Positions 3,374 to 30,638 of a stretch of DNA of 55,016 nucleotides are shown here, in pieces. The stretch is taken from the NCBI GenBank assembly GCA_964414415.1, contig CAYPWJ010000002.1:53300-108315 (forward strand), written 5' to 3'. The notes beneath the pieces were generated by a model that worked only from the letters and a program-made list of their open reading frames with translations, did not search any database and was not told the origin of the DNA. Numbering within the stretch: position 1 is the stretch's first letter; every line of letters starts with the position of its first letter. Both the position numbers and the translations under genes were made by a program. The DNA comes from an uncultured Thermoplasmatales archaeon. GTDB lineage: Archaea > Thermoplasmatota > E2 > UBA202 > DSCA01.

Positions 3374-3403
3374 TCCTTCTTTATTTCTCCTCTCGTCTCT
3401 CCT
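3374..3403 (+). terminator. Pyrimidine (CT)-rich tract immediately downstream of paralog 1 stop. Putative archaeal terminator element.
   Basis: tccttctttatttctcctctcgtctctcct directly after the TAG stop. Analogous tracts follow paralogs 2 and 3. Confidence 0.35.
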
Positions 3404-3514
3404 GGATGCCCTGCCGCCTGTGGCGGCGTAGCCTGGGCTGTCGTCGCTGTCTGGCCATCCTGCTTTGTTAGCCATACCCTTTGAATGATTGCTCGCTGCT
3501 GCAGGCATTAAAAA

Positions 3515-3536
3515 TTTTAGACAAATATTTATACCA
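3515..3536 (+). promoter_or_regulatory. Putative BRE/TATA promoter of paralog 2 (TTTTAGACAAATATTTATACCA), about 65 nt upstream of the ATG. A GGAGG RBS sits about 10 nt upstream of the ATG.
   Basis: 22-mer conserved (19/22) upstream of paralog 3 (9223-9244). The core (A/G)TATTTATACC recurs upstream of the F390-synthetase-like gene (about 31922). Confidence 0.55.
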
Positions 3537-3600
3537 TGGGCTTATTATAACGTAATTCCATAAACCATGGAGATATATAGGATATAGGAGGAATAAAACC

Positions 3601-6600
3601 ATGAAACGAGCAACACATATTTTAGCGATAGCAGGAGCGGTGGCGGTGGCGGCCCTGGCAGTGATGGCGTTCGGCGCAGCGCAGGCAGACGCGGTCGGAG
3701 CAGACATCTCATCCTATGAGGGACCTGCCCCGGGAGATGTTGACGTGGTTGTCGATCCAACCACCACTACGAACCCGGATTATATAATGGAGGCGGTCCT
3801 GCCGATGACTCATACGTTCGGAACCGACGCTGCGGTAACGAGAGACTACGATGTAGGTGCAGATAAAGCTACGTTCAATATAAGCGGTTTAGCTGGAGAC
3901 TCAGGAGCGATTTTCTTCGATAACGACAGCGACGGGATAGCTGATTTCCAGCTCGGATTCCGAGATACAGATCATTCCGGAGGGCCCGCAGCAACTGTTT
4001 GGGTAAATCAGGGAGGAACATGGACAGAGGATACTGCATTCAGAAGCCTGACTGATTCTGATAGTGACGGCGTATACGAGTTTGGAGCCAATCCTATAAC
4101 GTCAGGTGGGAGACTTGGCACAATGCCGGATGTTTTCGATGGTGAAATCGCTAGTGATTATATTTTCATCGAGGTAGAGGAATCCGCCCTCGACTGTGAC
4201 TTCAAGTACGGAATCAGGGACCCTGCTGGAGATAACTACAATTTCGATGTCAGCACCAGTGGATGGGATTTTGACGCTACCAACGATATCGTCACAGGCA
4301 GCACCGTCCCGACAGGTAAAGGCATAAACACTGTCGGTGTAAATCCTGGCACCTATACAGAGCAGGTCACTATAGACAAGTCATTGACGCTGGTTTCCAT
4401 GGAAGGGCCTGAGGAGACGGAGATATCGTTGACAGAGAAGATGAATATCGGAGCCGACGATGTGACTGTTAAGGGATTCAATATAACCCGGGAAAGCGAC
4501 ATTAACATTATATACTTAACTGGGGCTGATGCTACAGTCGAGTGGAACATCTTTGAAGGCACAATCGATGGTTATGCGATAAGATTGGAAGGCCCCCCTG
4601 CCAACGGAGCTAAGATAGTGAACAATAAGTTTATTGGGACTAGGCATGCTGTTATGGATGCAGGTGCCAGCCAGGTCGGGATTGAAAATAATACAATTAT
4701 AGGCACGGGCGTGACAGGTGTACTGATAACGGACGGGACAGGAGGAACCGCGGCTAACGTTGACAATGTCAAAATAAAATACAATCTTTTCGAGAACATC
4801 GAAGGCGAGGATGTTTTCTCAGCAGTCGGTGTTTACGTAGGAGCGGGTAAAACGATAGACGGCCCCGGTATAGAAGTCAACTATAATCATTTCATTAACA
4901 ATAAGATGGGTGTTTATGCTTTAGAAGATACAGGCGATTTGGTGGACAAGGTTGACGCCACCTGCAACTGGTGGGGTGATGCATCCGGGCCGAACCATAC
5001 GAGCAACCCGCTTGGAAGCGGTGATAATGTCAGTGACAAGGTTGAATTTGTCCCGTGGCTCAATGCAACCTATCCTGATGGAGAGTGTATCGGTGGTACA
5101 TGCAAGACAGATATATGGGTTGACAACGACTATGACAGCTCTACACCGGGCTGGAACATAGACCATTTCGCAACCATACAGGACGGCGTGGACAGAGTTT
5201 GCGACGGTGGCACGGTCCACGTTGCAGCGGGAGCCTACAATGCGTCACTTCTCATAGATAAACCTCTAACATTGCAAGGAGCCGGAGCATCTCAGACCAT
5301 TATAAATGGATCCTCTAGTACTAAAGCTATGAAATTGCTTATAGAGGTGTACGGTAATCTTACTGTTGATGGATTCACTATCAATGCATCTGAAATCTGG
5401 GGAACAGTCTACGGTAGAGATGAACCATCTCTGCACGATGATAACCCAGGTCAATGGAACTTTACGAACAATACATTTGAACTGGGGACAATGTATTTTG
5501 ATCATACGGACGCCGATATAAAAATCTGTAACAACACGTTCAATACAACATGGGAGGCGGTTGGCACAGAGGAATGCACTGGAGCAATGGAAATCGGCCA
5601 TAACAAGATGAATTACGTTGATGACGATAATGAGGGCAATCCCGGACTCATCAAAATCTCTAACTGGCCTAAATACTGGGAAAACAGCAGCGGGAGTTTC
5701 CTTATACCGAACAATGCCACCGCCAAACAATGGATACACAACAATACCATGAACTGCAATGGTGCCATCGGGATAACGTATCATAGCTATCCTTCTGCCG
5801 AAAATTGGCAATCTTGGGGAGGCCCACAGGTTGTCGACAGTGCTGCCGTATTTAGCGATGTTGTCATAGAAAACAACGAAATCTCCGGCGTTGGCGATCT
5901 CAATGCTGCCGCCTATCCTGGCGTCTTTAATGAGTCTCCCTATCCTAACGCTGGCATTTTGTTAAAGAGAAATGGCAGTGGCACCGGGTTTGAAGACACA
6001 GTTATTTCCAGCAATACCATCACGGCAGATGCTGGCGCCGCCGAGGTGAACCAGGGAATCCATCTATCTGGAAACTGTACCGATACAACAATCACTGAAA
6101 ACTCGATAACGGGCTTCGACAATGCTGTCTACCTCAACACCACCACTGGCGAATACCCCTCCAGTACAGCAATTCATTACAACAATTTCGGTGGCAATAC
6201 CTACGGCGTCTACACCGAGGACCCCATCAATATGACCGACGCCACCTGCAACTGGTGGGGTCATCCATCCGGGCCGAACCACACTGACAATCCGTCCAAA
6301 GACCATGGGATAGGTGACAACGTGAGCGACAACGTCGACTTCTCGCCGTGGCTCAACGCGCCATATCCCGGCGGCAAAGCCATCGACTACTGGAACCCCA
6401 CCTCTGTTGATGGCGAGGCAGACATTGACGAAAAAGCGAACGCAGACACCACGGTAAATATCACGACTACCGAAGAGCAAAACGTCACCGTGCAGAACTA
6501 CGTGGGCGACCCCGAGCCCGGTGCAGGATCACCGCAGGGCATCGGCCCGATCGGCAAATACGTCGACGTGGCCGTCGAAAACGAAACGGCGGTTGAATGG

Positions 6601-9168
6601 CCCGTCAACATCACCATCTACTACACGCAGGCGGACCTCGACGCGGCTGGCATCCCCGAGACGTCATTGACAGAGATGCTCTACTACGACGAGACATCCG
6701 GTGAGTGGGAGGCATACAACGACACCGGCGTCAACACCGCAAACACCGACGGATACGAGGGCTACGTCTGGGCGAACGCCTGGAACGGCTACCAGCTCTC
6801 GCCGAAGGCACCGAGCGGCTTGATGGACGTCTGGGTCGACGACGATGCAGACCCGGGGTGGTATGACGCCGCGCATGTCAGGACCATCAAGGAGGGCATC
6901 GACAACGTCACCGCGGGCGGCACCGTCCACGTCTGGGACGGTACGTACCATGAGGAGAACATTTTCGTCAACAAGTCTATCAGCATCATCGGCAACACCT
7001 CTGTTGATGCCCGGAACAAGGCCGTTGAACTGAACACCAATGTTAGCTACACAGATAAGGGCTTCATCGTCCAGGCGGACCACGTCAACATATCGGGCTT
7101 CAACATCACCAACTGGGGTGGCATATATCCCTGCGGCGGCGTGCTCGTCAATCATTCCAGCCGCTGCAACATCTCAGGGAATGTCATGGCGGGTGACTAC
7201 GACGGTGTCAAACTCAACGCATCAGATGAAAACGTTGTCTATAACAATATCATCCTGGAATCCACGTATGGTGTCTGGATGGCCAACGGAAGCAGCCACA
7301 ACGTCATCGATTCGAACTTTATCAGAGACACACAGATTGGCATACTATATTACACCGAGGAACCTGCCTGCTGGAACACCATCGTCGGTAACAACATATC
7401 CCACAACCTCCTCTGGGGCATAGCTATGGAGTATACCTATCAGGATGAGATCATCGACAACGAGTTCTGGTACAACGGCGGAGGCAGTGGAGAAATGGTG
7501 ATTGCGCAAGAAAACGGTGGCAGCAATGGCGGCGCAATAGGCCTCCGGGGGGCCAACGACACCTACATTGGAGGAAACACCATGCGGTACAATTATCACG
7601 GCGTAGTGATGGACACTTGCGAGGACAACCTGGTGGAGTCCAACGACATCCAACAAACGCTGCCCGGTTGGAATCCCTCTGACCCATTGGAGGGAGATCC
7701 TCCTCCAATTGGCGTTATGATTGTGGAGGGCCGCTCCTATAACGTCATCCAGCATAACAACGTCTCCAGCTATCCTATTGGAATAGCTCTGGTGGGCACG
7801 ACTCACGAGAAGGTGAGATACAACGACATCTCTGCCAATGGATACGGCGTGAGCTTGGGTGGCACTGTTTTCAGCAACATCACTGGAAACGAGATATACA
7901 GCAACGCCGGATACGGCGTGCGCCTTGACAGCTCTGGTTACAACAACCTGACTGGGAACGAGATATACGACAACACCGACGACGGCATATATTTCCATAG
8001 CTCCCGTTACAACAATATCACTGGAAACGCCATCTGGGGCAACGACAACCGGGGAATCAATCTGTTGGACTCTCCCTGCAACAACCTGACCGGCAATTAC
8101 ATCTGGAACAATGCCGATGAAGGCGTCTACCTCGATTATCGGTCCAGCTACAACAACCTCACCGAGAACTACGTCGCCGACAACAGCCACGGCATCTACC
8201 TCGAGGGCTCCTCGGGTACGCTCCTCGAGAACACCACGGTACGCGACTGCGTCGCATCCGGCAACGCCATCTATGACTTCTACGCCACCGACTACACCGT
8301 CAACACCACCGTCACCAATCTCACCGTGTCGAGCTACCCGACGCCAGTCGATGTCGCCTACGGCGGCACCGTTGCGGTGAAGGGCGTCGACGAGAGCGAG
8401 ATAACGCCGTACGACGAGCACGCGCCGCTCAACCGCTACGTCAACGTCACCGGCAGCTCCTGGGTCAACATCAGCATCCACTACACAGATGGAGACCTCA
8501 CCTACACCAGCGAGGACACCCTGGGAATGTACGAGTATACCGGAACCAGCTGGTCAGAGGTGACGACAGCGGACCATTACCCGGATGACAACTATCTACA
8601 GGTGAACATCTCCTCGTTCAGCATCTACGGCCTGTTCGGCGACATCACGCAGCTGAACCTGTCGCTCTACGAGGGATGGAACATGGTCTCGGTGCCCTGC
8701 AACCAGAGCCTGAACACCGCCGGGGAGCTCGCCGAGCTGGTCAACGGCGAGAGCGAGGGCGTGTGCACCGTCATCACCAGGTGGGACACCGCCAAGCAGC
8801 GGTACGTCAGCTACATCCCGGGCTCCGGCGAGGGCTTCGCCCTGTCCAACGGCACCGGCTACTTCGTCTACGTCACGGCTGATGTCAACGTGAACATCAC
8901 CGGTGACATCGTCACGCCGGACGTCGACCTGTCGCTCGAGGAGGGCTTCAACCTCGTCGGGTGGCCGTATCCCTACGACGCAGAGGCCAGCGACATCGCC
9001 GGCGGCATCGACAACTGCGTCAAGGTCTCAAAGTTCAACGCGTCGACGCAGACGTGGCTGCCCGAGTACGTGCCAGGGCTCCCCGCCTCCAACGACTTCG
9101 CCGTCCGGATGGGCGAGGGCGTGTTCGTCTTCGTCAACCCGGGACCGTCTGGCTGGCAGCCCAGGTAA
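3601..9168 (+). CDS. Giant secreted beta-helix surface protein, paralog 2 (1855 aa). Has a signal peptide, PbH1 repeats, two CNWWG...GP...PWLNA modules, and the shared C-terminal bipartite module.
   Basis: N-terminus MKRATHILAIAGAVAVAALAVMAFGAAQADA (signal peptide). Repeats NNxxxGN / GIxL. Two copies of the motif ATCNWWG(D/H)xSGPNHT..GDNVSD.V.F.PWLNA. Last about 540 nt identical to 2830-3373. Confidence 0.9.
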   Translation: MKRATHILAIAGAVAVAALAVMAFGAAQADAVGADISSYEGPAPGDVDVVVDPTTTTNPDYIMEAVLPMTHTFGTDAAVTRDYDVGADKATFNISGLAGDSGAIFFDNDSDGIADFQLGFRDTDHSGGPAATVWVNQGGTWTEDTAFRSLTDSDSDGVYEFGANPITSGGRLGTMPDVFDGEIASDYIFIEVEESALDCDFKYGIRDPAGDNYNFDVSTSGWDFDATNDIVTGSTVPTGKGINTVGVNPGTYTEQVTIDKSLTLVSMEGPEETEISLTEKMNIGADDVTVKGFNITRESDINIIYLTGADATVEWNIFEGTIDGYAIRLEGPPANGAKIVNNKFIGTRHAVMDAGASQVGIENNTIIGTGVTGVLITDGTGGTAANVDNVKIKYNLFENIEGEDVFSAVGVYVGAGKTIDGPGIEVNYNHFINNKMGVYALEDTGDLVDKVDATCNWWGDASGPNHTSNPLGSGDNVSDKVEFVPWLNATYPDGECIGGTCKTDIWVDNDYDSSTPGWNIDHFATIQDGVDRVCDGGTVHVAAGAYNASLLIDKPLTLQGAGASQTIINGSSSTKAMKLLIEVYGNLTVDGFTINASEIWGTVYGRDEPSLHDDNPGQWNFTNNTFELGTMYFDHTDADIKICNNTFNTTWEAVGTEECTGAMEIGHNKMNYVDDDNEGNPGLIKISNWPKYWENSSGSFLIPNNATAKQWIHNNTMNCNGAIGITYHSYPSAENWQSWGGPQVVDSAAVFSDVVIENNEISGVGDLNAAAYPGVFNESPYPNAGILLKRNGSGTGFEDTVISSNTITADAGAAEVNQGIHLSGNCTDTTITENSITGFDNAVYLNTTTGEYPSSTAIHYNNFGGNTYGVYTEDPINMTDATCNWWGHPSGPNHTDNPSKDHGIGDNVSDNVDFSPWLNAPYPGGKAIDYWNPTSVDGEADIDEKANADTTVNITTTEEQNVTVQNYVGDPEPGAGSPQGIGPIGKYVDVAVENETAVEWPVNITIYYTQADLDAAGIPETSLTEMLYYDETSGEWEAYNDTGVNTANTDGYEGYVWANAWNGYQLSPKAPSGLMDVWVDDDADPGWYDAAHVRTIKEGIDNVTAGGTVHVWDGTYHEENIFVNKSISIIGNTSVDARNKAVELNTNVSYTDKGFIVQADHVNISGFNITNWGGIYPCGGVLVNHSSRCNISGNVMAGDYDGVKLNASDENVVYNNIILESTYGVWMANGSSHNVIDSNFIRDTQIGILYYTEEPACWNTIVGNNISHNLLWGIAMEYTYQDEIIDNEFWYNGGGSGEMVIAQENGGSNGGAIGLRGANDTYIGGNTMRYNYHGVVMDTCEDNLVESNDIQQTLPGWNPSDPLEGDPPPIGVMIVEGRSYNVIQHNNVSSYPIGIALVGTTHEKVRYNDISANGYGVSLGGTVFSNITGNEIYSNAGYGVRLDSSGYNNLTGNEIYDNTDDGIYFHSSRYNNITGNAIWGNDNRGINLLDSPCNNLTGNYIWNNADEGVYLDYRSSYNNLTENYVADNSHGIYLEGSSGTLLENTTVRDCVASGNAIYDFYATDYTVNTTVTNLTVSSYPTPVDVAYGGTVAVKGVDESEITPYDEHAPLNRYVNVTGSSWVNISIHYTDGDLTYTSEDTLGMYEYTGTSWSEVTTADHYPDDNYLQVNISSFSIYGLFGDITQLNLSLYEGWNMVSVPCNQSLNTAGELAELVNGESEGVCTVITRWDTAKQRYVSYIPGSGEGFALSNGTGYFVYVTADVNVNITGDIVTPDVDLSLEEGFNLVGWPYPYDAEASDIAGGIDNCVKVSKFNASTQTWLPEYVPGLPASNDFAVRMGEGVFVFVNPGPSGWQPR

Positions 9169-9213
9169 CCCCTTTCTCTCCCTTTTCCCTTCTTTTTCTA
9201 TCCTGTTTTTTTG
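9169..9213 (+). terminator. Pyrimidine-rich tract downstream of the paralog 2 stop (putative terminator).
   Basis: cccctttctctcccttttcccttctttttctatcctgttttttt. It ends in an oligo-T run, which is typical of archaeal termination. Confidence 0.4.
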
Positions 9214-9222
9214 CGCCGGATA

Positions 9223-9244
9223 TTTTAGATAAGTATTTATACAA
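9223..9244 (+). promoter_or_regulatory. Putative BRE/TATA promoter of paralog 3 (TTTTAGATAAGTATTTATACAA), about 47 nt upstream of the ATG. The RBS is GGAAGGAGG.
   Basis: Near-identical to the element at 3515-3536. Confidence 0.55.
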
Positions 9245-9290
9245 ATGACGGTTATCTTTTTTACTCCAACAGAGGAAGGAGGCACGGATT

Positions 9291-12200
9291 ATGAAAGCAA
9301 GACATGCATATATTCTTGGAATTGTAGGGATAGTCGCGTTTGTCGGATTCATGTCGATGAACGCCGACGCAAACGGGACAGATGTCATCTATGAGGAGGA
9401 CTTCGAGGATAGCTGTCCGCCATCCGGCTGGACGATCGGCGAGAAGCCTGCAAACGGCGATACATGGGCCTGTAGCACCGTTTTGCCGGGCATCTGTGTT
9501 CAGGGGGGCGCCAGTGGTACCTTTATGGCGTTTGACGATGACGATTACGGCCCGGGCAGCGACAATCCACAGGAGTGGCTTGTTTCGCCTGCTGTCAACT
9601 GTGGTAACTACGAGAATATAGCCCTGTCGTGGACCGGAGACTTCCAGGACTTCGCCGGTCACGGCGAATTCTGGGTGAACGTCTCCAACGATGCCGGCGT
9701 GACGTGGACAAACGTCTATCATGCAGACATGGATGTCGGGGGGTTTGACACTGACTCAGCCATCCCGGTGGATATCTCCGCCGTGGCCGACCATTCCAGC
9801 CATGTCATGGTCAATTTTACCTACAGCGATACAGATTCCACGGGGACTTCAGACAATGCGTGGGGGGCGCTGGTTGACGACGTCACCCTGACGGGAACAC
9901 CGACGGGGTTTGTCTATATCGACGAAAACCACAACGGCTCGTATGACGACGGCGAGTGGCACGGCGTCTTCATTGCCGATGCGGTGGACAACGCCGAACG
10001 CGGCGACACCATCTACGTCTGGAACGGCAGCTACTGGGAGACCAACATCACCATCGACATGCCGCTGACTGTCATCGGGAACACGTCCGTCGACGCTCTC
10101 GCAGGCATCGACATGCCGCGGACCACGTACCTGAACTATACCGACAAGGGCTTCATCATCAACGATACAAGCCACGTCAACATCTCCGGCTTCTACCTTG
10201 TAAACAAAGGGAGGATGGAGATGTGCGGCGGCGTAAGCCTGAACCACTCCAGCCACTGCAACATCTCCGGCAACATCATCATGGGTGACGCGGACGGCAT
10301 CTACCTCAACGACTCGCACTACAACACCATATATAACAACTTCATCTATGACAACAATTTTGTGGGTATCTGGATGGTTGGGTCCAGCAACAACACCATC
10401 GAGATGAACAATCTCACCGGCAATTACTACGGCATCCTCTACGAGCCGTACGAGGCCATGCAGCTCAAGTTTTCTTGGAACACCATCCGGCACAACAACA
10501 TCTCATATAATGGCGGGTGGGGGATTGTCATGCGCGGCACAGACAACGAGACCATCGAATATAACGATTTTTACGGCAACGGCCTGGATGGCGGGGGCGC
10601 CATCCATTTCATTGGCGTCAACGACGGCATCATTGCTCACAACACCATGATGTACAACTACCCGTGGGGCGTCTGGCTGGAGCACTGCGAAGAGGTCACC
10701 GTTGAAGATAACACCATCCTGGGGGGAGAGACCGTAAACGACAATGGAAACGCACACACCTACCACGTCTATCTAAAGGAATCTGAGGGATGGCATCTCC
10801 ACGACGAGGTGCATTTCTCCCATCGATACGGCCGAGAAGTAATTGATCTGCCGCTTCCCGACGTCGACGGCGAATACAAGGTGCGTATATCCCAGTCTGG
10901 CGGAACGGCGGCTCACATCGACTACGTGGCGCTGCTCGACGGCGGGGAGACGCCGCCCGCCGGTGCTTCATACGTGGACGGTGGGGACATCCTCCAGAAA
11001 GTCGTGGCTGCGGACAACGACGTCGCCGACGCCTGGGGGAAGACCATCGAGCTTTCGTGGGATGGAACGTTTACGTCGACTCGCCTCGTCCTGGTGGCCA
11101 ACGAGGAGCAGCCGATACCTGAGATTCCCCATCGGACGCCGTCGGTCATGTTTCCGTCGTTCATGGAGCCCTACCGGATAGAGGAGACGGGCGCTGTCGA
11201 CGTCGACGGAACCCTCGATGACCTGGGGGATGCGGATTTCCGGGCATACTGGATCCCGACGACCGGTCATCCCCGCGGGTACACGTACGTCTGGCTTCGC
11301 TCCGACGGCGAGTACCTCTCCGGCGCGATGGAGGTCACCGGGGACAACACCTACGATGACACGGGATGGGGCTCGCTGTACATCGCGACTGGCCGCGAGG
11401 TGCAGGAGTTCCGCGTCACCGCCACCGATCATGCTTACGGCGTCGACTCCTTCGTCTACACCGATGCCGTCGGATGGCAGCACATGCTCTACGAGTTCCG
11501 GATCCCGCTGGACGAGATCGGGGCAGCAATCGGCGACACTGTCCGCGTGGGCTACGGCAGCTACGGTACCTTTGGGCCAATGACAGGCCCGACTGGGGTC
11601 TACATTAGCAACGGCATGTACCTTCCGCCCAACACTGACGAATGCTTCAACACGCTGGAGGACAACACCATATCCGGCCATGACTACGGCGTCCTTCTTT
11701 CAGGCACGGACAACGAGACACTCGCCGGCAACACGATAACCTATAACTTTGAGGCTGGTGTCTACTCGATGTATAGCGAAAACATCTCCATCATAGACCA
11801 CAACAATTTTTCTCATAATGGACCGGTGTCAGGATGGGAGTACCATACTGGCGGCGTTGTTTTCGAACATACGCATCACAGCGACGTCGCCGGCAACTTT
11901 TTCACCGACAACAGGGGAGGTGCCATCAATTTCATTGCTTCCCGGCACAACGACATCATCGACAACGACATCATCGAAAACTGCGGCTGGCTGCACGGGA
12001 TAGGGATAATAGAGAACGCAAACCATACCTACATCGCCACAAATAATATACGAGACAACACAGGGCCGGGGATAGAAATCTTGCATACGGGATACACCCG
12101 GGTAGAGGACAACAACATCACCGGCAACGCATTTGCTGGCATATACATGTATCGCGCTCCATATACCGACATCAACCGCAATTTCATCGCAGACAACATA

Positions 12201-13079
12201 GACGGCGAAAGCGGCATACATATCGGGAAGGAGTCAAATCACTCCAGCATCACGAACAACACCATCAAGGCCAACGGCGTCGGCATCTACATCAACGGTG
12301 GACCAAACACCACTGGCTATTATTGGAACGTCGATACACAGATACACTGGAACCAGATATACGACAACACGGAATACGGCCTCTGGTACGAGATGTCCAC
12401 CGGCGGGACGACGCCCTACGTCAACGCGACGTGGAACTGGTGGGGTGCCGCCAACGGCCCGAGCAGCGACAGCGGCAACATGCAGGACCCCGTCACCAAT
12501 ACGTATGCCACCGGGTCCGGCGACGAGATCAACGGCAGCGCCGCATACGCCAACATCCACTTCGACCCCTGGATGGGCCTCTATCTCTACCAGGGCTGGA
12601 ACATGGTCTCCCCGGGCTTCATCCCCGAGGTGGGCACAGCCGGTGACCTGGCAGACCTGATCGGCGACAACTGCACCGTCATCACCAGGTGGGACAGCGA
12701 CAAGCAGCGCTACGTCAGCTACATCCCGGGCTCCGGCGCGGGTTTCACGCTGCGTGACGGCGAAGGCTACTTCGTCTACGTCACCCACGACACCAACGTA
12801 CAGTTCACCGGCGGCCTCGCATCGCCGAGCATCGACCTGACGTTGAGCGACGGGTTCAACCTGGTCGGATGGCCCGACGTTGGCTACCGGCAGGCCAGCT
12901 GGTTCGCCGGCCAGATCGACAACGCCGTCAAGGTGTCCATGTATGACGCTGAGACGCAGACGTGGCTGCCCGAGTACATCGCCGCGCTGCCCATCTCCAA
13001 CGACTTCGACGTGCTGATGGGCGACGGCGTCTTCGTGTTCGTCAACCCGGGACCGTCGAACTTGGGCGGGGGAGCGTAG
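9291..13079 (+). CDS. Giant secreted beta-helix surface protein, paralog 3 (1262 aa). Has a signal peptide, an N-terminal choice-of-anchor-J/MAM-like domain, PbH1 repeats, one NWWG module, and a divergent copy of the shared C-terminal module.
   Basis: N-terminus MKARHAYILGIVGIVAFVGFMSMNADA. YEEDFEDSCPPSGWTIGE..GDTWA. Repeats NISGN/NLTGN/NNITGN. TWNWWGAANGPSS. C-terminus QGWNMVSPG...GYFVYV...GFNLVGWP...GVFVFVNPGPS. Confidence 0.9.
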   Translation: MKARHAYILGIVGIVAFVGFMSMNADANGTDVIYEEDFEDSCPPSGWTIGEKPANGDTWACSTVLPGICVQGGASGTFMAFDDDDYGPGSDNPQEWLVSPAVNCGNYENIALSWTGDFQDFAGHGEFWVNVSNDAGVTWTNVYHADMDVGGFDTDSAIPVDISAVADHSSHVMVNFTYSDTDSTGTSDNAWGALVDDVTLTGTPTGFVYIDENHNGSYDDGEWHGVFIADAVDNAERGDTIYVWNGSYWETNITIDMPLTVIGNTSVDALAGIDMPRTTYLNYTDKGFIINDTSHVNISGFYLVNKGRMEMCGGVSLNHSSHCNISGNIIMGDADGIYLNDSHYNTIYNNFIYDNNFVGIWMVGSSNNTIEMNNLTGNYYGILYEPYEAMQLKFSWNTIRHNNISYNGGWGIVMRGTDNETIEYNDFYGNGLDGGGAIHFIGVNDGIIAHNTMMYNYPWGVWLEHCEEVTVEDNTILGGETVNDNGNAHTYHVYLKESEGWHLHDEVHFSHRYGREVIDLPLPDVDGEYKVRISQSGGTAAHIDYVALLDGGETPPAGASYVDGGDILQKVVAADNDVADAWGKTIELSWDGTFTSTRLVLVANEEQPIPEIPHRTPSVMFPSFMEPYRIEETGAVDVDGTLDDLGDADFRAYWIPTTGHPRGYTYVWLRSDGEYLSGAMEVTGDNTYDDTGWGSLYIATGREVQEFRVTATDHAYGVDSFVYTDAVGWQHMLYEFRIPLDEIGAAIGDTVRVGYGSYGTFGPMTGPTGVYISNGMYLPPNTDECFNTLEDNTISGHDYGVLLSGTDNETLAGNTITYNFEAGVYSMYSENISIIDHNNFSHNGPVSGWEYHTGGVVFEHTHHSDVAGNFFTDNRGGAINFIASRHNDIIDNDIIENCGWLHGIGIIENANHTYIATNNIRDNTGPGIEILHTGYTRVEDNNITGNAFAGIYMYRAPYTDINRNFIADNIDGESGIHIGKESNHSSITNNTIKANGVGIYINGGPNTTGYYWNVDTQIHWNQIYDNTEYGLWYEMSTGGTTPYVNATWNWWGAANGPSSDSGNMQDPVTNTYATGSGDEINGSAAYANIHFDPWMGLYLYQGWNMVSPGFIPEVGTAGDLADLIGDNCTVITRWDSDKQRYVSYIPGSGAGFTLRDGEGYFVYVTHDTNVQFTGGLASPSIDLTLSDGFNLVGWPDVGYRQASWFAGQIDNAVKVSMYDAETQTWLPEYIAALPISNDFDVLMGDGVFVFVNPGPSNLGGGA

Positions 13080-13143
13080 GCTCTCCTCTCTTTCTCCTCT
13101 CTCCCTCTCTTTCTCCCTTTGCTCCCCCAAAACCTTTTTTAAG
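13080..13143 (+). terminator. Long (CT)n-rich tract followed by an oligo-T run, downstream of paralog 3 (putative terminator).
   Basis: ctctcctctctttctcctctctccctctctttctccctttgctcccccaaaacctttttt. Confidence 0.4.
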
Positions 13144-13162
13144 GCGCGCTTGATGTCGTAGC

Positions 13163-13738
13163 ATGGCCGACGAGCAGGAGTTACAGCATCTCAGAGTCGT
13201 TCTTGATTATCTTCCCTGCGAGGACTGCGAGGACCGCGTTCCCTGGGAGGAGCGCGAGTATCTGTGCTCGGTGTGCGGCAGAATCAGCAGAAACGTCTCC
13301 GCGGAGATAGCGGTGCCCCGCTGGCGGACGGAGAACGGCGACGTCGTCGCCGTCGAAGGCCGTGACATCGAGGAGCTCCGCCCCGAGGTCTCCATGGTGG
13401 AACAGGAGCCCGAGGAACCCGTGGAGCCCGAGGAGCAGGAGCCGATGGAGGACATCGAGGTGCTCGAGATCGGCGTCGAGGTCCCCGAGGCGGAGGCAGA
13501 GCCCGAGGAGGACGAGGAGCTCCCCGAGTGGGAGACCGTCGAGGAGACGCCGTACACGGTCGGCGAGTACACGCTCCACACCAAGGAGGCCACCCTGCGA
13601 GGCGGCCGGAAACAGCAGATCTATTTTTTCGCAAAGAAAGAAAAAAAAGATGCGACTCCCTGCGCCAAGCCGGAGGGCTACGACGTCAAAGTCAACGAAA
13701 AAACAGGGCTGCCCGTGCTCAAGCGAAAAAAGAAATAG
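13163..13738 (+). CDS. Hypothetical protein: N-terminal CxxC...CxxC zinc-ribbon-like region, a long acidic (E/P-rich) linker, and a basic C-terminal domain.
   Basis: CEDCED...CSVCG. The acidic run EPEEPVEPEEQEPMEDIEVLE. C-terminus YTLHTKEATLRGGRKQQIYFFAKKEKK...PEGYDVKVNEKTGLPVLKRKKK. No family recognised. Confidence 0.5.
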   Translation: MADEQELQHLRVVLDYLPCEDCEDRVPWEEREYLCSVCGRISRNVSAEIAVPRWRTENGDVVAVEGRDIEELRPEVSMVEQEPEEPVEPEEQEPMEDIEVLEIGVEVPEAEAEPEEDEELPEWETVEETPYTVGEYTLHTKEATLRGGRKQQIYFFAKKEKKDATPCAKPEGYDVKVNEKTGLPVLKRKKK

Positions 13739-13744
13739 CCGACG

Positions 13745-14749
13745 ATGCACATCGAGGAGTTCGACTACCAGCTGCCGAAGGACGCCATCGCGCAGCAGCC
13801 CGCCGTCCCCCGTGACAGCTGCCGCCTGCTCGTGATGGACGACGGCATCCGGCACCACCGGTTCACCGGCATCCTTGGATATCTGCGTGAGGGAGACGTC
13901 CTGGTGCTCAACGACACCCGGGTGCGGTACGCCCGCATCCACGCCCGCAAGGACACCGGCGGCAAGGTCGAATTGCTGGTGCTCGGTGAAGAGCGCAGCG
14001 GATATCGATGCATGGTCAAGGGCCGCGTCCGCGAGGGCACCGTCATCGAGCTGCCCGACGACACCGCTGCCACCGTGACCAGGAAGGACGGCGGCGTCTG
14101 CCGCCTCGACATCCCGCTGGAGATGGAGCAGCTGGAGGCGATGGGCGAGATGCCGCTGCCGCCCTACATCACCGCCGACCTCGACCCGGCGACGAAGGAG
14201 CGATACCAGAGCGTCTACGCCGACGAGAAAGGCTCCGTCGCAGCGCCGACCGCCGGCCTGCATTTCACCCCCGAGCTGCTGGAGTGCATCCACGAGGCAG
14301 GCGTCGAGATCGTCACCCTGACGCTTCACGTCGGCATCGGGACCTTCCTGCCCGTGCGGAGCGACCACGTCGAGGAGCACGACATGCATCCCGAACGCTT
14401 CACCATCGACGCCCGGGCGGCGGAGACAATCAACGAGGCCGAGGGCGACGTCGTCGCCGTCGGCACCACCACCATCCGGGCGCTGGAGAGCGCCTCCCGC
14501 GACGGCGTCGTCGCGCCCATGGAACGCTGGACCGACCTGTTCATCTACCCCGGCTACCGCTGGCAGTCACCCGTCACCGGGATGCTCACCAACTTCCATC
14601 TGCCGCAGTCAACGCCGTTGCTCATGGTCTGTGCCTACGCCGGCAGGCAGCGCGTCGTGCAGGCCTACCGGGAGGCACTGCAGCAGGGCTACCGGTTCCT
14701 CAGCTTCGGGGACGCGATGTTCATCAGGGGGCCACCGTGTTCGAGGTAG
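13745..14749 (+). CDS. queA: S-adenosylmethionine:tRNA ribosyltransferase-isomerase (QueA), bacterial type.
   Basis: Near-colinear match to bacterial QueA: FDYQLP..IAQQP..RDSCRLLV, MPLPPYI, VAAPTAGLHFT, GTTTIRALES, LTNFHLPQST, RFLSFGDAMFI. Confidence 0.9.
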   Translation: MHIEEFDYQLPKDAIAQQPAVPRDSCRLLVMDDGIRHHRFTGILGYLREGDVLVLNDTRVRYARIHARKDTGGKVELLVLGEERSGYRCMVKGRVREGTVIELPDDTAATVTRKDGGVCRLDIPLEMEQLEAMGEMPLPPYITADLDPATKERYQSVYADEKGSVAAPTAGLHFTPELLECIHEAGVEIVTLTLHVGIGTFLPVRSDHVEEHDMHPERFTIDARAAETINEAEGDVVAVGTTTIRALESASRDGVVAPMERWTDLFIYPGYRWQSPVTGMLTNFHLPQSTPLLMVCAYAGRQRVVQAYREALQQGYRFLSFGDAMFIRGPPCSR

Positions 14750-15795
14750 CAGCCCGGCAGGGCACCGCACGGGCCGGCGTGCTCCACATGCCACACGGCG
14801 ACGTCGAGACACCTGTCTTTCTGCCCGTTGCGACCAAGGCAGCCGTCAAGACGCTGACGCCGGAGGAGACATGGACGACCGGCAGCCGGATGCTCATCGT
14901 CAACGCCCTCCACCTCTACCGGCGGGGCATCGAACGCGTCACCCGTGCCGGCGGCATCCACCAGTTCATGCAATGGGACGGCGCCGTCGTCAGCGACAGC
15001 GGCGGCTTCCAGCTCATCAAGCAGTTCCCCTGCGACATCGAAAGCGACGGCGTCCGGTTTACCATGCCCGACGGCACCCGCGACCTGTTCACCCCCGAGA
15101 AATCCATCAGGATGCAGGAACAGCTCGGCGTCGACATCGCATTGACGCTCGACGACTGCCCCTCCCATCCCGCGACGCCGCAGCGCGTCGCATCCGCGGT
15201 CGACACCACCATCCGATGGGCGGAGCGCTGCCAGGGACCCGGCCGGTTCGCCATCCTGCAGGGCGGCACCGTCGAGGCGGAGCGCGTCCGATGCGCCCGC
15301 GCCGTCGCCGACATGGACTACGACGGCTACGCCATCGGCGGCCTCTGCATCGGCGAGCCGAAGGAAGCGATGCACCGGATGGTCGAGACAACCCTGGAGC
15401 ACCTGCCGCCCGGGAAGCCGCGGCATCTCATGGGCGTCGGCTCACCGGGGGACATCTGGCGGGCCGTCAGGGCCGGCGTCGACATCTTCGACAGCGCCTA
15501 TCCAACCAGGAACGCCAGGCACGGCACCATTTTTACCTCCCGCGGCAGAGTCAACCTCGGGCGAGCGAAGACCACCGGCGACGTGATAGACGACAGATGT
15601 GACTGCTACACGTGCCGGCGGTTCAGCCTCGACTACCTCAACCACCTGTTCCGGGAGAAAGACCCGCTGGGCCCGCGCCTCGCCACGATACACAACCTCA
15701 CCCACGTCAACCGCGTCGTCACGGCGGCCAGGGAGCGCATCCTGGCGGGAAAAACGCTTAAAACAAACGAGGGCATACAGTTTGATGCTGTTTGA
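14737..15795 (+). CDS. tgt: Queuine/preQ1 tRNA-ribosyltransferase (bacterial-type Tgt, about 352 aa, no PUA domain). GTG start overlaps the queA stop by 13 nt.
   Basis: QFMQWDGAVVSDSGGFQ (catalytic DSGGFQ), YDGYAIGGLCIGEPK, PRHLMGVGSPGDI, FDSAYPTRNARHG, zinc motif CDCYTCRRFSLDYLNHL. The length fits the bacterial QTRT rather than arcTGT. Confidence 0.85.
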   Translation: MFEVAARQGTARAGVLHMPHGDVETPVFLPVATKAAVKTLTPEETWTTGSRMLIVNALHLYRRGIERVTRAGGIHQFMQWDGAVVSDSGGFQLIKQFPCDIESDGVRFTMPDGTRDLFTPEKSIRMQEQLGVDIALTLDDCPSHPATPQRVASAVDTTIRWAERCQGPGRFAILQGGTVEAERVRCARAVADMDYDGYAIGGLCIGEPKEAMHRMVETTLEHLPPGKPRHLMGVGSPGDIWRAVRAGVDIFDSAYPTRNARHGTIFTSRGRVNLGRAKTTGDVIDDRCDCYTCRRFSLDYLNHLFREKDPLGPRLATIHNLTHVNRVVTAARERILAGKTLKTNEGIQFDAV

Positions 15796-16498
15796 AACCA
15801 ACCACGGCGTCATCGTCGCCTGCGACGTTGACACCATCGACGCCTACGCGTCGCTCGTCCGGCGGACCTGTCACGTCGACGGCGTCGTCGGCTACAAGAT
15901 CGGCTCCACCCTCGCCCTGACATATGGACTGCAGCCGCTGACCGACGTCGTCGCCGACCACTGCAGCCTGCCGGTCATCTACGACCATCAAAAAGCCGCG
16001 ACGGACATCCCGCAGATGGCTGACCCGTTCGCCCGCGTCTGCCGGCGGGGAGACGTCGACAGCGTCATCCTGTTTCCCCAGGCCGGCCCGGAGACCGAGA
16101 AGGCATTCATCCAGGCTGTCGCCGAGCACGGCATGGAGCCCATGGTCGGCGGCGAGATGACGCATCCCGGCTACCTGGCAGACGAGCAGGGTTACCTCCG
16201 CCGCGACGCGCCACCCGACATGTACCGGCTGGCCGCCCAGCACGACGTGAGATACTTCATCGTCCCCGGCAACCGACCCGGGGCGCTCCAGCGCTACCAC
16301 GACCTGCTCACCGGTCTCATCGACACGCCGGCGTTCTGCATGCCCGGCATCGGCCGGCAGGGCGGCTCCATCACCAGCGCGTTCAGCCAGCTTGGCAGCG
16401 CCGCTGCATACGCCATCGTCGGCTCAGCGATCTACAGGAGCGACGACCCCGCCGCTGCGGCGCGTGAACTGGCCCGGGAGGCCCTCCAATTCGAGTGA
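15785..16498 (+). CDS. OMP-decarboxylase-fold (PyrF-like) protein, divergent. Overlaps the tgt stop by 11 nt.
   Basis: ACDVDT / GYKIG / IYDHQKAATDIPQ resemble the OMPDC Asp/Lys/DxKxxD motifs, but with altered spacing (D-x-x-K-x-x-x-D). Confidence 0.55.
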   Translation: MLFETNHGVIVACDVDTIDAYASLVRRTCHVDGVVGYKIGSTLALTYGLQPLTDVVADHCSLPVIYDHQKAATDIPQMADPFARVCRRGDVDSVILFPQAGPETEKAFIQAVAEHGMEPMVGGEMTHPGYLADEQGYLRRDAPPDMYRLAAQHDVRYFIVPGNRPGALQRYHDLLTGLIDTPAFCMPGIGRQGGSITSAFSQLGSAAAYAIVGSAIYRSDDPAAAARELAREALQFE

Positions 16499-16502
16499 TA
16501 CC

Positions 16503-17219
16503 ATGGAGGCACAGGACATCCTGGCCGGTTTATACGAACGTGGCCTCATCAAGACCTGGCATCGCGACCGCCCCGAGGGCTGGACGCTGGTGTCCGGCCT
16601 CTGGAGCCCCTTCTACATCAACCTCCGCGCGCTCCCCAGCCACCCCCGGCTGCTGATGGCGGTCGGCGAACGCCTCGGCGAGCTCGTCCTGGAGCGATGC
16701 GACCCCGACAGCGTCATGGGCATCGCCATGGCCGGCATCCCGCTTGCATCGGCGGTCGCGGTGCAGCACGGCGTCCCGATGCTCTACACCCGGAAGCTCC
16801 AGGGCGTCAAATCGCTGGAGGCGCTCCGCGCAGCCGCCGAGCAGTACGGGCAGCATTCCCTGGTCGAGGGCGCCATCGAGGACGGCGACCACATCGTCGC
16901 GCTCGACGACCTTGTCACCCGATTTGACAGCAAGCTCGTCGCCGTCGAGCAGCTGGCGATGGAGGCCGACCGCCGGGACGTCGATGTTTCCTGCAGCGAC
17001 GTGGCGGTGCTCATCGACCGGGAGCAGGGCGCCGGCGACATCGCCGCCCGGCACGGCATGGACCTCCACGCGCTGATACCCTTCAAGAGCCGCGGCGTCC
17101 AATGGCTCCGCGAGGCATTCACCGAGGTCGAGTACCAGGTCATCAGCGACTACCTCCGGGACAGCGACCCCTATCAGGACGAGCAGCGCCGCCGGGAGAT
17201 CATCGCCTCCTACGAGTAG
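16503..17219 (+). CDS. Type I phosphoribosyltransferase-like (orotate PRTase-like) protein with a degenerate PRPP/PPi loop and a C-terminal extension.
   Basis: YERGLIK..SGLWSPFYINLR..GIAMAGIPLASAVA..IVALDDLVTRFDS is OPRT-like. However, the TTGGS PPi loop is replaced by TRFDS, there is an insertion of about 20 aa in the flexible loop, and an extra C-terminal tail of about 40 aa. Confidence 0.55.
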   Translation: MEAQDILAGLYERGLIKTWHRDRPEGWTLVSGLWSPFYINLRALPSHPRLLMAVGERLGELVLERCDPDSVMGIAMAGIPLASAVAVQHGVPMLYTRKLQGVKSLEALRAAAEQYGQHSLVEGAIEDGDHIVALDDLVTRFDSKLVAVEQLAMEADRRDVDVSCSDVAVLIDREQGAGDIAARHGMDLHALIPFKSRGVQWLREAFTEVEYQVISDYLRDSDPYQDEQRRREIIASYE

Positions 17220-24857: not shown

Positions 24858-26399
24858 ATGATGCTGCCTGACGTGCTTAAGGAAAGCGCCGCGTTGCACG
24901 GCGACGACCCGGCCGTTGTTTTCGATGACCGCACGATGAGCTACCGGCAGCTGGCTCACTGCGCTCGCTCCATCGCCGGGTCGCTGCACGAGATGGGTAT
25001 CCGGCACGGCGACCACGTCGCGGTGTGGATGCCGAACAACCTGGAGTATCTCCCCATCTATTTCGGCATCGCGGCGGCCGGCGCGACGATGGTGCCGATG
25101 AACACCCGCTATCGGACGCACGAGGCACGCTACATCCTCACCGACTCCGACGCCAGAGCCATCTTCATGGTCCCCCGGTTCCTCAAGATGCGGTACGACG
25201 AGATGCTCCGGGATGTAGCGCCGTCGCTGCAGCAGCTGGAGCAGGCCGTCGTGCTCGACGGCGGAGAGACGGATGTCGGGGTCCCATCGACGACCTACGA
25301 GGCCTTTCTATCCACAGGGCGGGATGCAGCGCTGCCTGACATCTCCGAAGAGGACATCTCGCAGATGCTCTACACGTCGGGCACCACCGGAAAACCAAAG
25401 GGCGTCATGCTGAGCCACGCCAATGTGTGCGACAACGCCCGGGTGACCGGCGAGGTCATGGAGACACGCCCGGGTGACCGCTACTTTGTGCCGCTGCCTC
25501 TCTTTCATTCCTTCGGGCTGGTCCTGGGCTGCCTGACACCGCTGACCTTCGGGGCGACCATCGTCCTCCAGGATGTCTTCGATGCCGAGGAAGCGCTGCG
25601 GCTCATGGAAACGCACCGGTGCACCATGAACTTCGGTGTTCCCGCCATGTTCATGATGGAGCTCGAGGCATATCGCTCCGGTGACTATGACCTTGCACTG
25701 CGGAGCGGCATGATGGGCGGTGCCCCCTGCCCCATCGAGGTCGTCAAGGGCGTCCGCCGGGAGATGGACTGCGACGTCTGCATCGGCTACGGCATCACGG
25801 AGACATCGCCGCTTATCTCGCTGACCAGGTTCGGCGACGACGACCAAAAGCGGGCGGAGACCGTCGGCCTTCCATTGCCGGGCGTCGAGGTCAAGGTGGT
25901 CGACGAGCAACGCCGGCCGCTGCCGCCGGGCGAGATCGGAGAGATCGCCATCCGCGGCAACGTCATGCAGGGCTACTACGGGATGCCCGAGGCGACCGAG
26001 GAGGCAATCGACGATGAGGGCTGGTACTACAGCGGCGACCTCGGCGTCATCGACAGCGACGGCTACCTGTCCATCACAGGGCGGAAAAAGGACATGATCG
26101 TCGTCGGCGGGTTCAACGTCTACCCCCGGGAGATAGAGGAGCTCCTCTTCGAGCACCCCCGGGTCAAAAATGCCGCCGTCGTCGGGGTGCCCGACGACCG
26201 CCTCGGCGAGGTCGTCACGGCCTACGTCGTGCCCGACGGCGACCTCAGCGAGAAGGCAATACAGGATTTCTTGGCGGAGAGAGTCGCCAACTTCAAGGTG
26301 CCCCGCCATGTGGCCTTCATGGAATCGCTGCCCATGACCGCCAGCGGCAAGGTGCAAAAATACAAGCTCCGGGAGAACCATGACACATCCGAGCAATGA
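24858..26399 (+). CDS. AMP-dependent synthetase/ligase (acyl-CoA synthetase, FadD-like).
   Basis: YTSGTTGKPKGVMLSHANV (AMP-binding motif), GYGITETSP, GEIAIRG, YYSGDLG, GRKKDMI, KVQK. Confidence 0.9.
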   Translation: MMLPDVLKESAALHGDDPAVVFDDRTMSYRQLAHCARSIAGSLHEMGIRHGDHVAVWMPNNLEYLPIYFGIAAAGATMVPMNTRYRTHEARYILTDSDARAIFMVPRFLKMRYDEMLRDVAPSLQQLEQAVVLDGGETDVGVPSTTYEAFLSTGRDAALPDISEEDISQMLYTSGTTGKPKGVMLSHANVCDNARVTGEVMETRPGDRYFVPLPLFHSFGLVLGCLTPLTFGATIVLQDVFDAEEALRLMETHRCTMNFGVPAMFMMELEAYRSGDYDLALRSGMMGGAPCPIEVVKGVRREMDCDVCIGYGITETSPLISLTRFGDDDQKRAETVGLPLPGVEVKVVDEQRRPLPPGEIGEIAIRGNVMQGYYGMPEATEEAIDDEGWYYSGDLGVIDSDGYLSITGRKKDMIVVGGFNVYPREIEELLFEHPRVKNAAVVGVPDDRLGEVVTAYVVPDGDLSEKAIQDFLAERVANFKVPRHVAFMESLPMTASGKVQKYKLRENHDTSEQ

Positions 26400-27558
26400 C
26401 ATTCGCGGCACCCTGTCCCGTCACCTCGACGGAAAAACCATCGTGCTCGGCGTGACCGGCAGCATCGCCGCCGTCGAGACCGTCAAGCTCGCCCGGCAGC
26501 TCATCCGGCACGGCGCCACCGTCATCCCCGTCATGACTCAGGCCGCCCGCGAGATACTGCATCCCTACGCCCTGGAGTTCGCAACCGGCATGCCGCCCGT
26601 CACGGAGCTGACCGGCGCCGTCGAGCACGTCGAGCACTGCGGCGTCCGCCCCGACAGCGCCGACATGATGCTCGTGGCGCCCTGCACGGCCAACACGCTC
26701 TCCAAGATAGCCCTCGGCATCGACGACACACCGGTAACCACCTGTGCCACCACGGCTCTGGGCTCATCCATCCCGCTCATGGTGGTCCCAGCGATGCATG
26801 CATCGATGTACGACGACGCCTTCGTCACCGACAACCTGGAGCGACTGCGCGGGCAGCACGTGGCAATCATCGACCCTCGCATGGAGGAAGGCACGGCCAA
26901 GGTCGCCACGGTCGACGCCATCGTGGCGGAGGTGCTCCGCGAGCTGGGCCCACGTGACCTGGCAGGCAGACGGGTCATCATCGTGGGCGGCGCCACCGCC
27001 GAGCCCGTCGACGACGTCAGGGTGCTCACCAACCGCTCGTCAGGCACGATGGCGCTGGCCCTCGCCACCGCCGCCCATCGACGGGGCGCCGAGGTAGAGC
27101 TCTGGCACAGCGGGCTTGCAGCGCCGGATTTCATTGGATCGCGGCGGTTCACGACCCACCGCGACGTCATCGAGCTCACAGGGGAAGCCACCCCCTGCGA
27201 CGTCCTCGTCAACTGCGCCGCCATCTCGGATTTCGTTCCCGAGCGGCACGACGGCAAGCTTGCATCAGGCCATCCCATCGACCTGCATCTCACGCCGGCG
27301 GAGCGCGTCAACCCGCATCTCCGAGACATCGCCGACGTCGCCATCTCGTTCAAGCTCGACACGTCAAAGGAGCGGGCCATCGAGCGGGCCAGGCAGCGGC
27401 TCCAGGAGGACGACTTCGATGTCATGGTGGCGAACACCACGGCGTCGCTCGGCAGCGACCGGATGGAGGCATGGCTCGTCGACTGCACCGGTCAGGTCAC
27501 GGAGGTCGAAGGCGACAAGCACATCGTCGCCGAGCGGCTGCTCGACCGGGTAGCATGA
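26380..27558 (+). CDS. coaBC: Bifunctional phosphopantothenoylcysteine decarboxylase / phosphopantothenate-cysteine ligase (CoaBC/Dfp).
   Basis: N-terminal flavoprotein domain (GKTIVLGVTGSIAAVETVKLARQL, PCTANTLSKIALGIDD). C-terminal CoaB domain (GGATAEPVDDVRVLTNRSSG). Confidence 0.85.
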   Translation: MTHPSNDIRGTLSRHLDGKTIVLGVTGSIAAVETVKLARQLIRHGATVIPVMTQAAREILHPYALEFATGMPPVTELTGAVEHVEHCGVRPDSADMMLVAPCTANTLSKIALGIDDTPVTTCATTALGSSIPLMVVPAMHASMYDDAFVTDNLERLRGQHVAIIDPRMEEGTAKVATVDAIVAEVLRELGPRDLAGRRVIIVGGATAEPVDDVRVLTNRSSGTMALALATAAHRRGAEVELWHSGLAAPDFIGSRRFTTHRDVIELTGEATPCDVLVNCAAISDFVPERHDGKLASGHPIDLHLTPAERVNPHLRDIADVAISFKLDTSKERAIERARQRLQEDDFDVMVANTTASLGSDRMEAWLVDCTGQVTEVEGDKHIVAERLLDRVA

Positions 27559-30471: not shown

Positions 30472-30545
30472 GGGCTCTTGGTCTAGCTGGTTATGACGTC
30501 GCCTTGACATGGCGGAGGTCCTGGGTTCAAACCCCAGAGAGCCCA
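30472..30545 (+). tRNA. tRNA-Val (anticodon GAC).
   Basis: Cloverleaf: acceptor GGGCTCT/AGAGCCC, anticodon stem CGCC-loop TTGACAT-GGCG, T-arm CTGGG TTCAAAC CCCAG, discriminator A. Coordinates +/-1. Confidence 0.8.
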
Positions 30546-30553
30546 CTCATCCG

Positions 30554-30638
30554 GCAGGGGTAGCCAAGCCAGGTTAACGGCGCAGCGTTCAGGGCGCTGT
30601 CCTGCAGAGGTCCAAGGGTTCAAATCCCTTCCCCTGCA
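30554..30638 (+). tRNA. tRNA-Leu (anticodon CAG), class II with a long variable arm.
   Basis: Acceptor GCAGGGG/CCCCTGC, anticodon stem CAGCG-loop TTCAGGG-CGCTG, long variable arm TCCTGCAGAGGTCC, T-arm AAGGG TTCAAAT CCCTT. Coordinates +/-1. Confidence 0.8.

Follow-up and report, generated by a model that had tools for sequence, protein, structure and literature searches.

Genes at the queA-tgt locus

A 55,016-nucleotide (nt) stretch of DNA, hereafter the window, was analysed from contig CAYPWJ010000002.1 (positions 53,300 to 108,315, forward strand; assembly GCA_964414415.1) of an uncultured Thermoplasmatales archaeon. Its main subject is a pair of overlapping genes, queA and tgt, which belong to the bacterial-type pathway for inserting queuosine (Q) into tRNA. 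By textbook assignment queuosine is a modification of Bacteria and Eukarya, and archaeosine is that of Archaea. The pair lies in a run of five co-oriented genes (13163-17219) that overlap or are separated by gaps of at most 6 nt, and the run is preceded by a promoter-like element. The features of the locus, with protein lengths in amino acids (aa), are as follows:

13127..13144, +, BRE/TATA-like promoter element CCAAAACCTTTTTTAA, centred about 24 nt before the ATG of hyp191
13163..13738, +, hyp191, uncharacterised 191-aa protein, first gene of the operon, ending 6 nt before queA
13745..14749, +, queA, tRNA preQ1(34) S-adenosylmethionine ribosyltransferase-isomerase, 334 aa (NF001140, TIGR00113, PF02547)
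14737..15795, +, tgt, bacterial-type tRNA-guanine(34) transglycosylase, 352 aa (TIGR00430), GTG start
15785..16498, +, pyrF, orotidine-5'-phosphate decarboxylase family, 237 aa (PF00215)
16503..17219, +, phosphoribosyltransferase-like (PRTase-like) gene, 238 aa, weak PF00156 match, last co-oriented gene of the cluster

The open reading frames (ORFs) of queA and tgt are both intact. The start codon of queA is ATG, and the GTG start of tgt is preceded by a Shine-Dalgarno-like GGGGG run; the Tgt N-terminus reads MFEV, and all close homologues begin with MFE[IV]. The frames of queA and tgt overlap by 13 nt and those of tgt and pyrF by 11 nt. The pyrF gene is probably on the same transcript as tgt and is not part of the Q function; it adjoins tgt in the close relatives (L002-L005, L009, L016 and L018) and does not do so in L010, L028 and L029. 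The PRTase-like gene after pyrF is likewise conserved in close relatives. The sequence and the spacing to the ATG of CCAAAACCTTTTTTAA were invariant in seven relatives, amid flanking intergenic DNA that had diverged, which suggests that the element is an archaeal promoter giving a leaderless or short-leader operon transcript.

Identity and active sites of QueA and Tgt

QueA matched the Pfam family PF02547 with end-to-end coverage (382.8 bits), its residues 1-328 corresponding to profile positions 1-343 of 346, and scored above the cut-offs of both NCBIfam equivalogs, NF001140 (386.9 bits, cut-off 324) and TIGR00113 (343.1 bits, cut-off 267.45). Tgt matched PF01702 with 398.9 bits and passed the cut-off of the bacterial Tgt equivalog TIGR00430 (352.8 bits, cut-off 306.75). 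The E-values of these family matches, 1e-105 to 1e-119, are far beyond chance. The best PDB matches of both proteins were solved bacterial enzymes, namely B. subtilis QueA 1yy3 (284 bits) for QueA and the Tgt of Z. mobilis and E. coli (about 280 bits) for Tgt, followed for the latter by human QTRT1 (234 bits) and P. horikoshii archaeosine tRNA-guanine transglycosylase (arcTGT; 90 bits). The initial annotation had called bacterial QueA and Tgt from the overlapping frames, the motifs DSGGFQ and CxCxxC...H, the length of 352 aa and the lack of a C-terminal PUA extension, and all of these were recovered, with Tgt ending at residue 352. By homology, QueA would carry out the conversion of preQ1-tRNA to epoxyqueuosine-tRNA with S-adenosylmethionine (SAM) as co-substrate.

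The active site of Tgt was compared in an alignment with Z. mobilis Tgt, E. coli Tgt and 17 archaeal homologues, and the residues are given in Z. mobilis numbering. The catalytic residues Asp102 (general acid/base) and Asp280 (nucleophile) are kept as residues 87 and 252 of the window protein, and the pocket residues S103, Q107, D156, C158, Q203, G229, G230, L231, E235, M260 and G261 are kept as well. The zinc ligands C318, C320, C323 and H349 correspond to C288, C290, C293 and H319 in the window Tgt, and the dimer-interface residues F92, Y330 and H333 are also retained.

According to Biela et al., Cys158 and Val233 mark the preQ1-using bacterial enzyme, and Val and Gly at these positions mark the queuine-using eukaryotic enzyme (PMC3660597). 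The window Tgt has Cys158 and Ile233 (Val in Z. mobilis), next to the substitution A232C, and lacks the Val158 and Gly233 of QTRT1-like enzymes. The pocket is therefore, as judged from these residues, of the preQ1 type and not of the queuine type, and the label "QTRT-type" used for Tgt in the initial annotation was imprecise. To our knowledge preQ1(34)-tRNA is the only substrate of QueA, so a preQ1-type Tgt fits the adjacent gene.

Residence of queA and tgt in an archaeal genome

The window is archaeal and belongs to Thermoplasmatota, with its closest relatives in metagenome-assembled genomes (MAGs) of Thermoplasmatota. Pfam scans of roughly 40 of its ORFs recovered PriS, PriL, Gins51, RfcL, the S13/S4/S11/Rpo3 block, CoaBC, a GHMP kinase, S-adenosylhomocysteine hydrolase and Sir2, and the archaeal character ascribed earlier to the surrounding genes was borne out. 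Coordinates of some of these genes are:

35915-36616, -, Gins51 (Pfam)
40022-41173, -, PriS (Pfam)
41160-42179, -, PriL (Pfam)
44358-45137, +, Rpo3/D RNA polymerase subunit, downstream of S13, S4 and S11
48548-49888, RfcL (Pfam)

An identical QueA is present in the MAG GCA_905333405.1, and a scan of species-representative genomes returned MAGs labelled "uncultured Thermoplasmatales archaeon" and "Thermoplasmatota archaeon" with a Tgt identity of 82-85%. The relatives keep the order hyp191-queA-tgt-pyrF-PRTase, and hyp191-queA-tgt(-pyrF) is also the order in independent NCBI, Logan and JGI assemblies. At a Tgt identity of 67% (L009), the neighbouring genes encode eRF1, Hjc, FEN1, RadA, Trm5/TYW2, GGGP synthase and PolB.

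The GC content of queA and tgt (0.67) and the GC content at their third codon positions (GC3, 0.86-0.91) are typical of the host, and their codon-usage distance to the host core genes, 0.15-0.18, falls inside the span of the core genes themselves (0.125-0.26). The ratio of nonsynonymous to synonymous substitution rates (dN/dS), determined against three relatives, was 0.21-0.29 for queA and 0.18-0.24 for tgt, similar to the 0.12-0.16 of pyrF. Since composition and codon usage are host-like and dN/dS is low, queA and tgt are resident genes that have long been ameliorated and are under purifying selection.

Distribution and phylogeny

Of the Tgt clusters, the 57 best (52% identity or more) carried a Thermoplasmatota, Thermoplasmata or Thermoplasmatales label or were unnamed metagenomic sequences, and the 29 best QueA clusters were of these same kinds. 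After these 57 clusters, the next-nearest Tgt proteins came from Methanoperedens/ANME-2 and from a second Thermoplasmata group, and the next tier of QueA mixed archaea (Hydrothermarchaeota, Aenigmarchaeota and Thermoplasmata) with Bacillota-like bacteria, with identities of 47-51% throughout. All archaeal loci examined have queA next to tgt; these comprise L008-L011, L028 and L029 of Thermoplasmatota, among which L011 comes from a closed 2.5-Mb genome, and L012 of Methanoperedens.

In neighbour-joining trees, with bootstraps counted as bipartitions and with four bacterial Tgt and eight bacterial QueA sequences included, the window QueA and Tgt each fell into a Thermoplasmatota clade ("clade 1") with 100% bootstrap support, and Tgt identity within this clade goes down to about 54%. 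All archaeal Tgt proteins of the bacterial type grouped apart from the four bacterial sequences (100%), which with so few bacteria is a weak test, and the archaeal QueA proteins were not resolved as monophyletic. Nesting within a particular bacterial group, as had been expected at first, was thus not found in these small trees, and the proteins fell in archaeal clades.

Because the Thermoplasmatota clade that holds the pair is a deep one, we conclude that the two genes were acquired long ago and then inherited vertically under purifying selection. A bacterial origin, which the trees do not demonstrate, is suggested by both families being near-universal in bacteria and patchy in archaea. Of the horizontal acquisition proposed in the initial annotation, the presence of bacterial-type genes in an archaeal host stands; the event appears to be ancient and lineage-wide, and is not confined to this genome.

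The Methanoperedens locus was also inspected for its neighbouring genes (L012, positions 293-11104, GCA_040223915.1). A gene of the SAM hydroxide adenosyltransferase family (PF01887) precedes queA-tgt there, and QueH (PF02677) lies 9 kb upstream of the pair, beside a radical-SAM gene. The local Q gene set at this locus is more complete than those at the Thermoplasmatota loci.

The conserved upstream gene hyp191

The first gene of the operon, hyp191, encodes a protein of three parts: a conserved four-cysteine (CxxC...CxxC) domain at the N-terminus, an acidic linker that varies, and a C-terminal beta domain that is basic and about 55 aa long. No Pfam family was assigned, and at E <= 10 only marginal zinc-ribbon matches were obtained. 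The C-terminal domain (13540-13735) was modelled by AlphaFold2 (AF2) as a four-stranded structure with a predicted local distance difference test score (pLDDT) of about 96, and this model had no fold match in the PDB. Its motif of about 55 aa, a widespread module for which there is no Pfam model, reads YTLxTKxxxLRGGxxQxIYFFxKK...PxGYxVxxNxxTGLPxLKK. In a search of 1.8 billion representatives, the N-terminal domain was found in only a handful of clusters, and the C-terminal domain in 428 proteins, many of them stand-alone and about 60 aa long. Other carriers of the C-terminal domain (loci L021-L027 were looked at) are fusions with HhH repeats, zinc ribbons, a Trm13-type CCCH finger or DUF2188.

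A full-length hyp191 homologue lies directly upstream of queA in 14/14 clade-1 loci examined, of which six, the JGI metagenome loci L015-L020, had been found with a hyp191 query (the others are L001-L004, L009, L010, L028 and L029). The linkage is kept even at a Tgt identity of 54-56%, where all other neighbours differ, and the dN/dS of hyp191 was 0.11-0.20. The gene was absent from the clade-2 locus L011 and from the one Methanoperedens locus examined (L012). This strict linkage to queA suggests that hyp191 is a functional partner of QueA and Tgt, and the locus thus supplies a candidate accessory protein for Q-insertion enzymes. More tentatively, hyp191 may be a dedicated partner, for instance an adaptor or regulator that binds tRNA and enables bacterial-type Tgt and QueA to act on archaeal tRNAs; a three-gene cassette of this kind, placing Q or epoxyqueuosine (oQ) at position 34 beside archaeosine, is possible but doubtful.

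Proposed mechanism and alternative explanations

We consider it about 80% probable that in this Thermoplasmatota genome functional tgt and queA genes of the bacterial type are a stable part of an archaeal operon, consisting of the promoter, hyp191, queA, tgt, pyrF and the PRTase-like gene. In the proposed mechanism, Tgt, probably a homodimer as in the bacterial enzyme, would replace G34 with preQ1 in the tRNAs that have a GUN anticodon (Asp, Asn, His and Tyr), through a covalent intermediate on Asp280, and QueA would then transfer the ribosyl group of SAM to the preQ1 aminomethyl group and isomerise it, giving oQ. Reduction of oQ to Q would require QueG or QueH encoded elsewhere. The preQ1 itself could come from the archaeal preQ0 (archaeosine-precursor) pathway together with QueF, or from salvage. 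Under this mechanism the genes would have entered the lineage long ago and come down vertically under purifying selection. The long retention of tgt and queA under such selection, throughout a widespread archaeal clade, argues that some archaea may use a Q-family wobble base to decode NAU/NAC codons, and Q or oQ would then be present in archaeal tRNA.

Several observations weigh against this proposal. The substitutions L68I, A232C/S, V233I and C281S are common to all archaeal members aligned and may affect specificity; in Z. mobilis Tgt, an Ala232Ser variant had a 100-fold lower kcat (PMC3660597). QueG, QueH, QueF, QueC/D/E, salvage transporters and arcTGT were found neither among roughly 40 ORFs scanned in the 55-kb window, where the lack of queG and queH had already been noticed, nor within 10 kb of the pair in six relatives from Thermoplasmatota. 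The trees, with their few bacterial sequences, do not single out a donor or a direction of transfer, and no chemical evidence for Q in archaeal tRNA was found in full-text searches of the literature.

It is possible, though we would not call it probable, that the enzymes are active and that the pathway stops early, yielding preQ1-tRNA or oQ-tRNA in place of queuosine, or that it runs on preQ1 salvaged from bacterial neighbours. The lack of QueG, QueH and QueF around the Thermoplasmatota pairs speaks for such a truncated pathway, in contrast to Methanoperedens, where QueH is nearby. However, absence over about 20-55 kb says little for a genome of roughly 2 Mb, and Q genes are often scattered in bacteria. 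A homologue search started from the Methanoperedens QueH was uninformative for Thermoplasmatota, since the 120 matches listed all belonged to Methanoperedens or Methanosarcinales.

A much less likely explanation is that Tgt is a truncated or split arcTGT reduced to its catalytic domain, acting on G15 with preQ0, and that QueA is incidental. The TIM-barrel TGT fold is common to both enzymes, and the window Tgt has an FDSA motif at the nucleophile Asp, which we take to be an arcTGT feature. However, Tgt scored only 135.6 bits against the arcTGT equivalog TIGR00432 (cut-off 350), far from its clear pass of the bacterial model, and it failed the ArcS model too. The same preference was seen with the solved structures, where a grouping of Tgt with arcTGT was looked for and did not appear. 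In addition, Tgt retains Cys158 and the Leu231/Glu235 switch specific for preQ1, and it is always paired with QueA. The evidence therefore leaves this explanation very improbable, and a bacterial-type preQ1-inserting Tgt remains the preferred reading.

Bacterial contamination, or an assembly chimera joining a queA-tgt segment to archaeal DNA, had to be considered because both families are otherwise bacterial and the source is a MAG, and this possibility had been raised from the start. It was not borne out, since independent assemblies show the same gene order, the flanks in relatives are archaeal (eRF1, Hjc, FEN1, RadA, PolB and ribosomal L13/L18e), the frames overlap those of their neighbours by 13 and 11 nt, and GC, GC3 and codon usage are indistinguishable from those of host core genes. 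As far as sequence can tell, contamination, chimerism and pseudogenisation of queA-tgt are therefore excluded, and a foreign or artificially joined segment was given next to no weight.

Equally remote is a role of the pair outside tRNA, for instance in placing 7-deazaguanine in DNA in the manner of DpdA systems. Repeated repurposing of TGT-family enzymes for modifying DNA is on record (PMC5699537), but Tgt reached only 19.4 bits against the DpdA model NF041059 (cut-off 200), and no dpd or defence genes adjoin the pair in the loci of relatives. Such a role would also have to account for QueA, for which we know of no role in DNA modification.

Other features of the window

The Rpo3/D subunit (44358-45137, +) contains a 4Fe-4S ferredoxin-like insert, with Fer4 matches between the two RNA_pol_L halves. 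A run of CoA-related genes (24858-28394, +) encodes an AMP-binding ligase, CoaBC (Flavoprotein and DFP domains) and a GHMP-family kinase; the last fits the pantoate kinase named in the initial annotation, and the confirmation extends to the GHMP N-domain only.

Positions 254-13079 (+) hold three genes in tandem, all very large (1039, 1855 and 1262 aa) and with signal-peptide-like N-termini. Their counterparts in the related locus L008 carry NosD/Beta_helix repeats, and their GC content (0.51-0.57) and codon usage are clearly unlike those of the rest of the window (GC 0.62-0.68). At the other end, the region from about 50074 to 55016 (+), which runs off the window, shows strong skew (AT up to +0.35, GC down to -0.27) and corresponds to the 5' part of the gene for a surface protein longer than 2,200 aa, as seen by extending past the window via RfcL. 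CLIPPER domains were present in this protein in the matching contig L014, and six-frame ORF lists of the region contained spurious short ORFs only. A further ORF of 1099 aa (36726-40025, +) has an N-terminal hydrophobic segment and host-like codon usage, and had no Pfam match at E <= 1e-5.

The only tRNAs of the window are the adjacent tRNA-Val(GAC) and tRNA-Leu(CAG) (30472-30638, +), neither of which is a Tgt substrate. When the window and 13 loci were scanned for tRNAs, no GUN-anticodon tRNA gene was found.

Comparison with known systems

Bacterial-type queA and tgt in archaea are already known, and the novelty here is modest, since they have been reported in DPANN and Methanosarcinales (PMC8204110) and since automatic NCBI/GenBank annotation already names these Thermoplasmatota proteins QueA and Tgt. 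What is apparently new is the lineage, together with the evidence of long vertical retention and the conserved partner gene. Full-text searches of the literature yielded no publication dealing with Q genes in either Thermoplasmatota or Methanoperedens, and recent reviews place Q in Bacteria and Eukarya and archaeosine in Archaea (PMC13329287).

Compared with bacterial QueA (B. subtilis 1yy3, T. maritima 1vky; NF001140/TIGR00113), the window protein shares a full-length match above the cut-offs, an identity of about 48-50% to Bacillota QueA, and a gene position directly beside tgt, as in many bacteria. It differs in belonging to a Thermoplasmatota-specific clade with 100% bootstrap support and in the order queA to tgt with overlapping frames.

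The window Tgt is 40-43% identical to the solved bacterial enzymes of Z. mobilis and E. coli (TIGR00430), and resembles them in its length class, its TIM-barrel with zinc subdomain and its dimer-interface aromatics. In contrast to these enzymes, its host is archaeal, its clade has substitutions of its own (L68I, A232C, V233I, C281S and Y258H), and its gene stands in an operon with a lineage-specific, putatively zinc-binding protein and a putative archaeal-type promoter. With arcTGT (TIGR00432; P. horikoshii 1iq8) it shares a homologous catalytic TIM-barrel, the zinc motif and the nucleophile Asp, but it lacks the C1, C2 and PUA domains (352 aa versus about 580 aa), lies far under the family cut-off, and has a pocket of the preQ1 type and not of the preQ0 type.

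The closest precedent is the description of complete or partial bacterial queuosine pathways in 34 archaeal genomes by Castelle et al. (2021), with co-localised QueA, QueH-like and Tgt genes; 12 of these genomes are DPANN, and the figure also includes Methanosarcinales (PMC8204110). Co-localised bacterial-type QueA and Tgt, read as laterally acquired, are common to that case and to the present one, and the Tgt of Methanoperedens/ANME-2 is next-nearest to the Thermoplasmatota proteins. That description, which names DPANN and Methanosarcinales, includes a co-localised QueH, whereas here the host is a member of Thermoplasmatota and QueH is not nearby; the Thermoplasmatota cassette has in turn an additional gene, hyp191, that the one Methanoperedens locus examined does not have.

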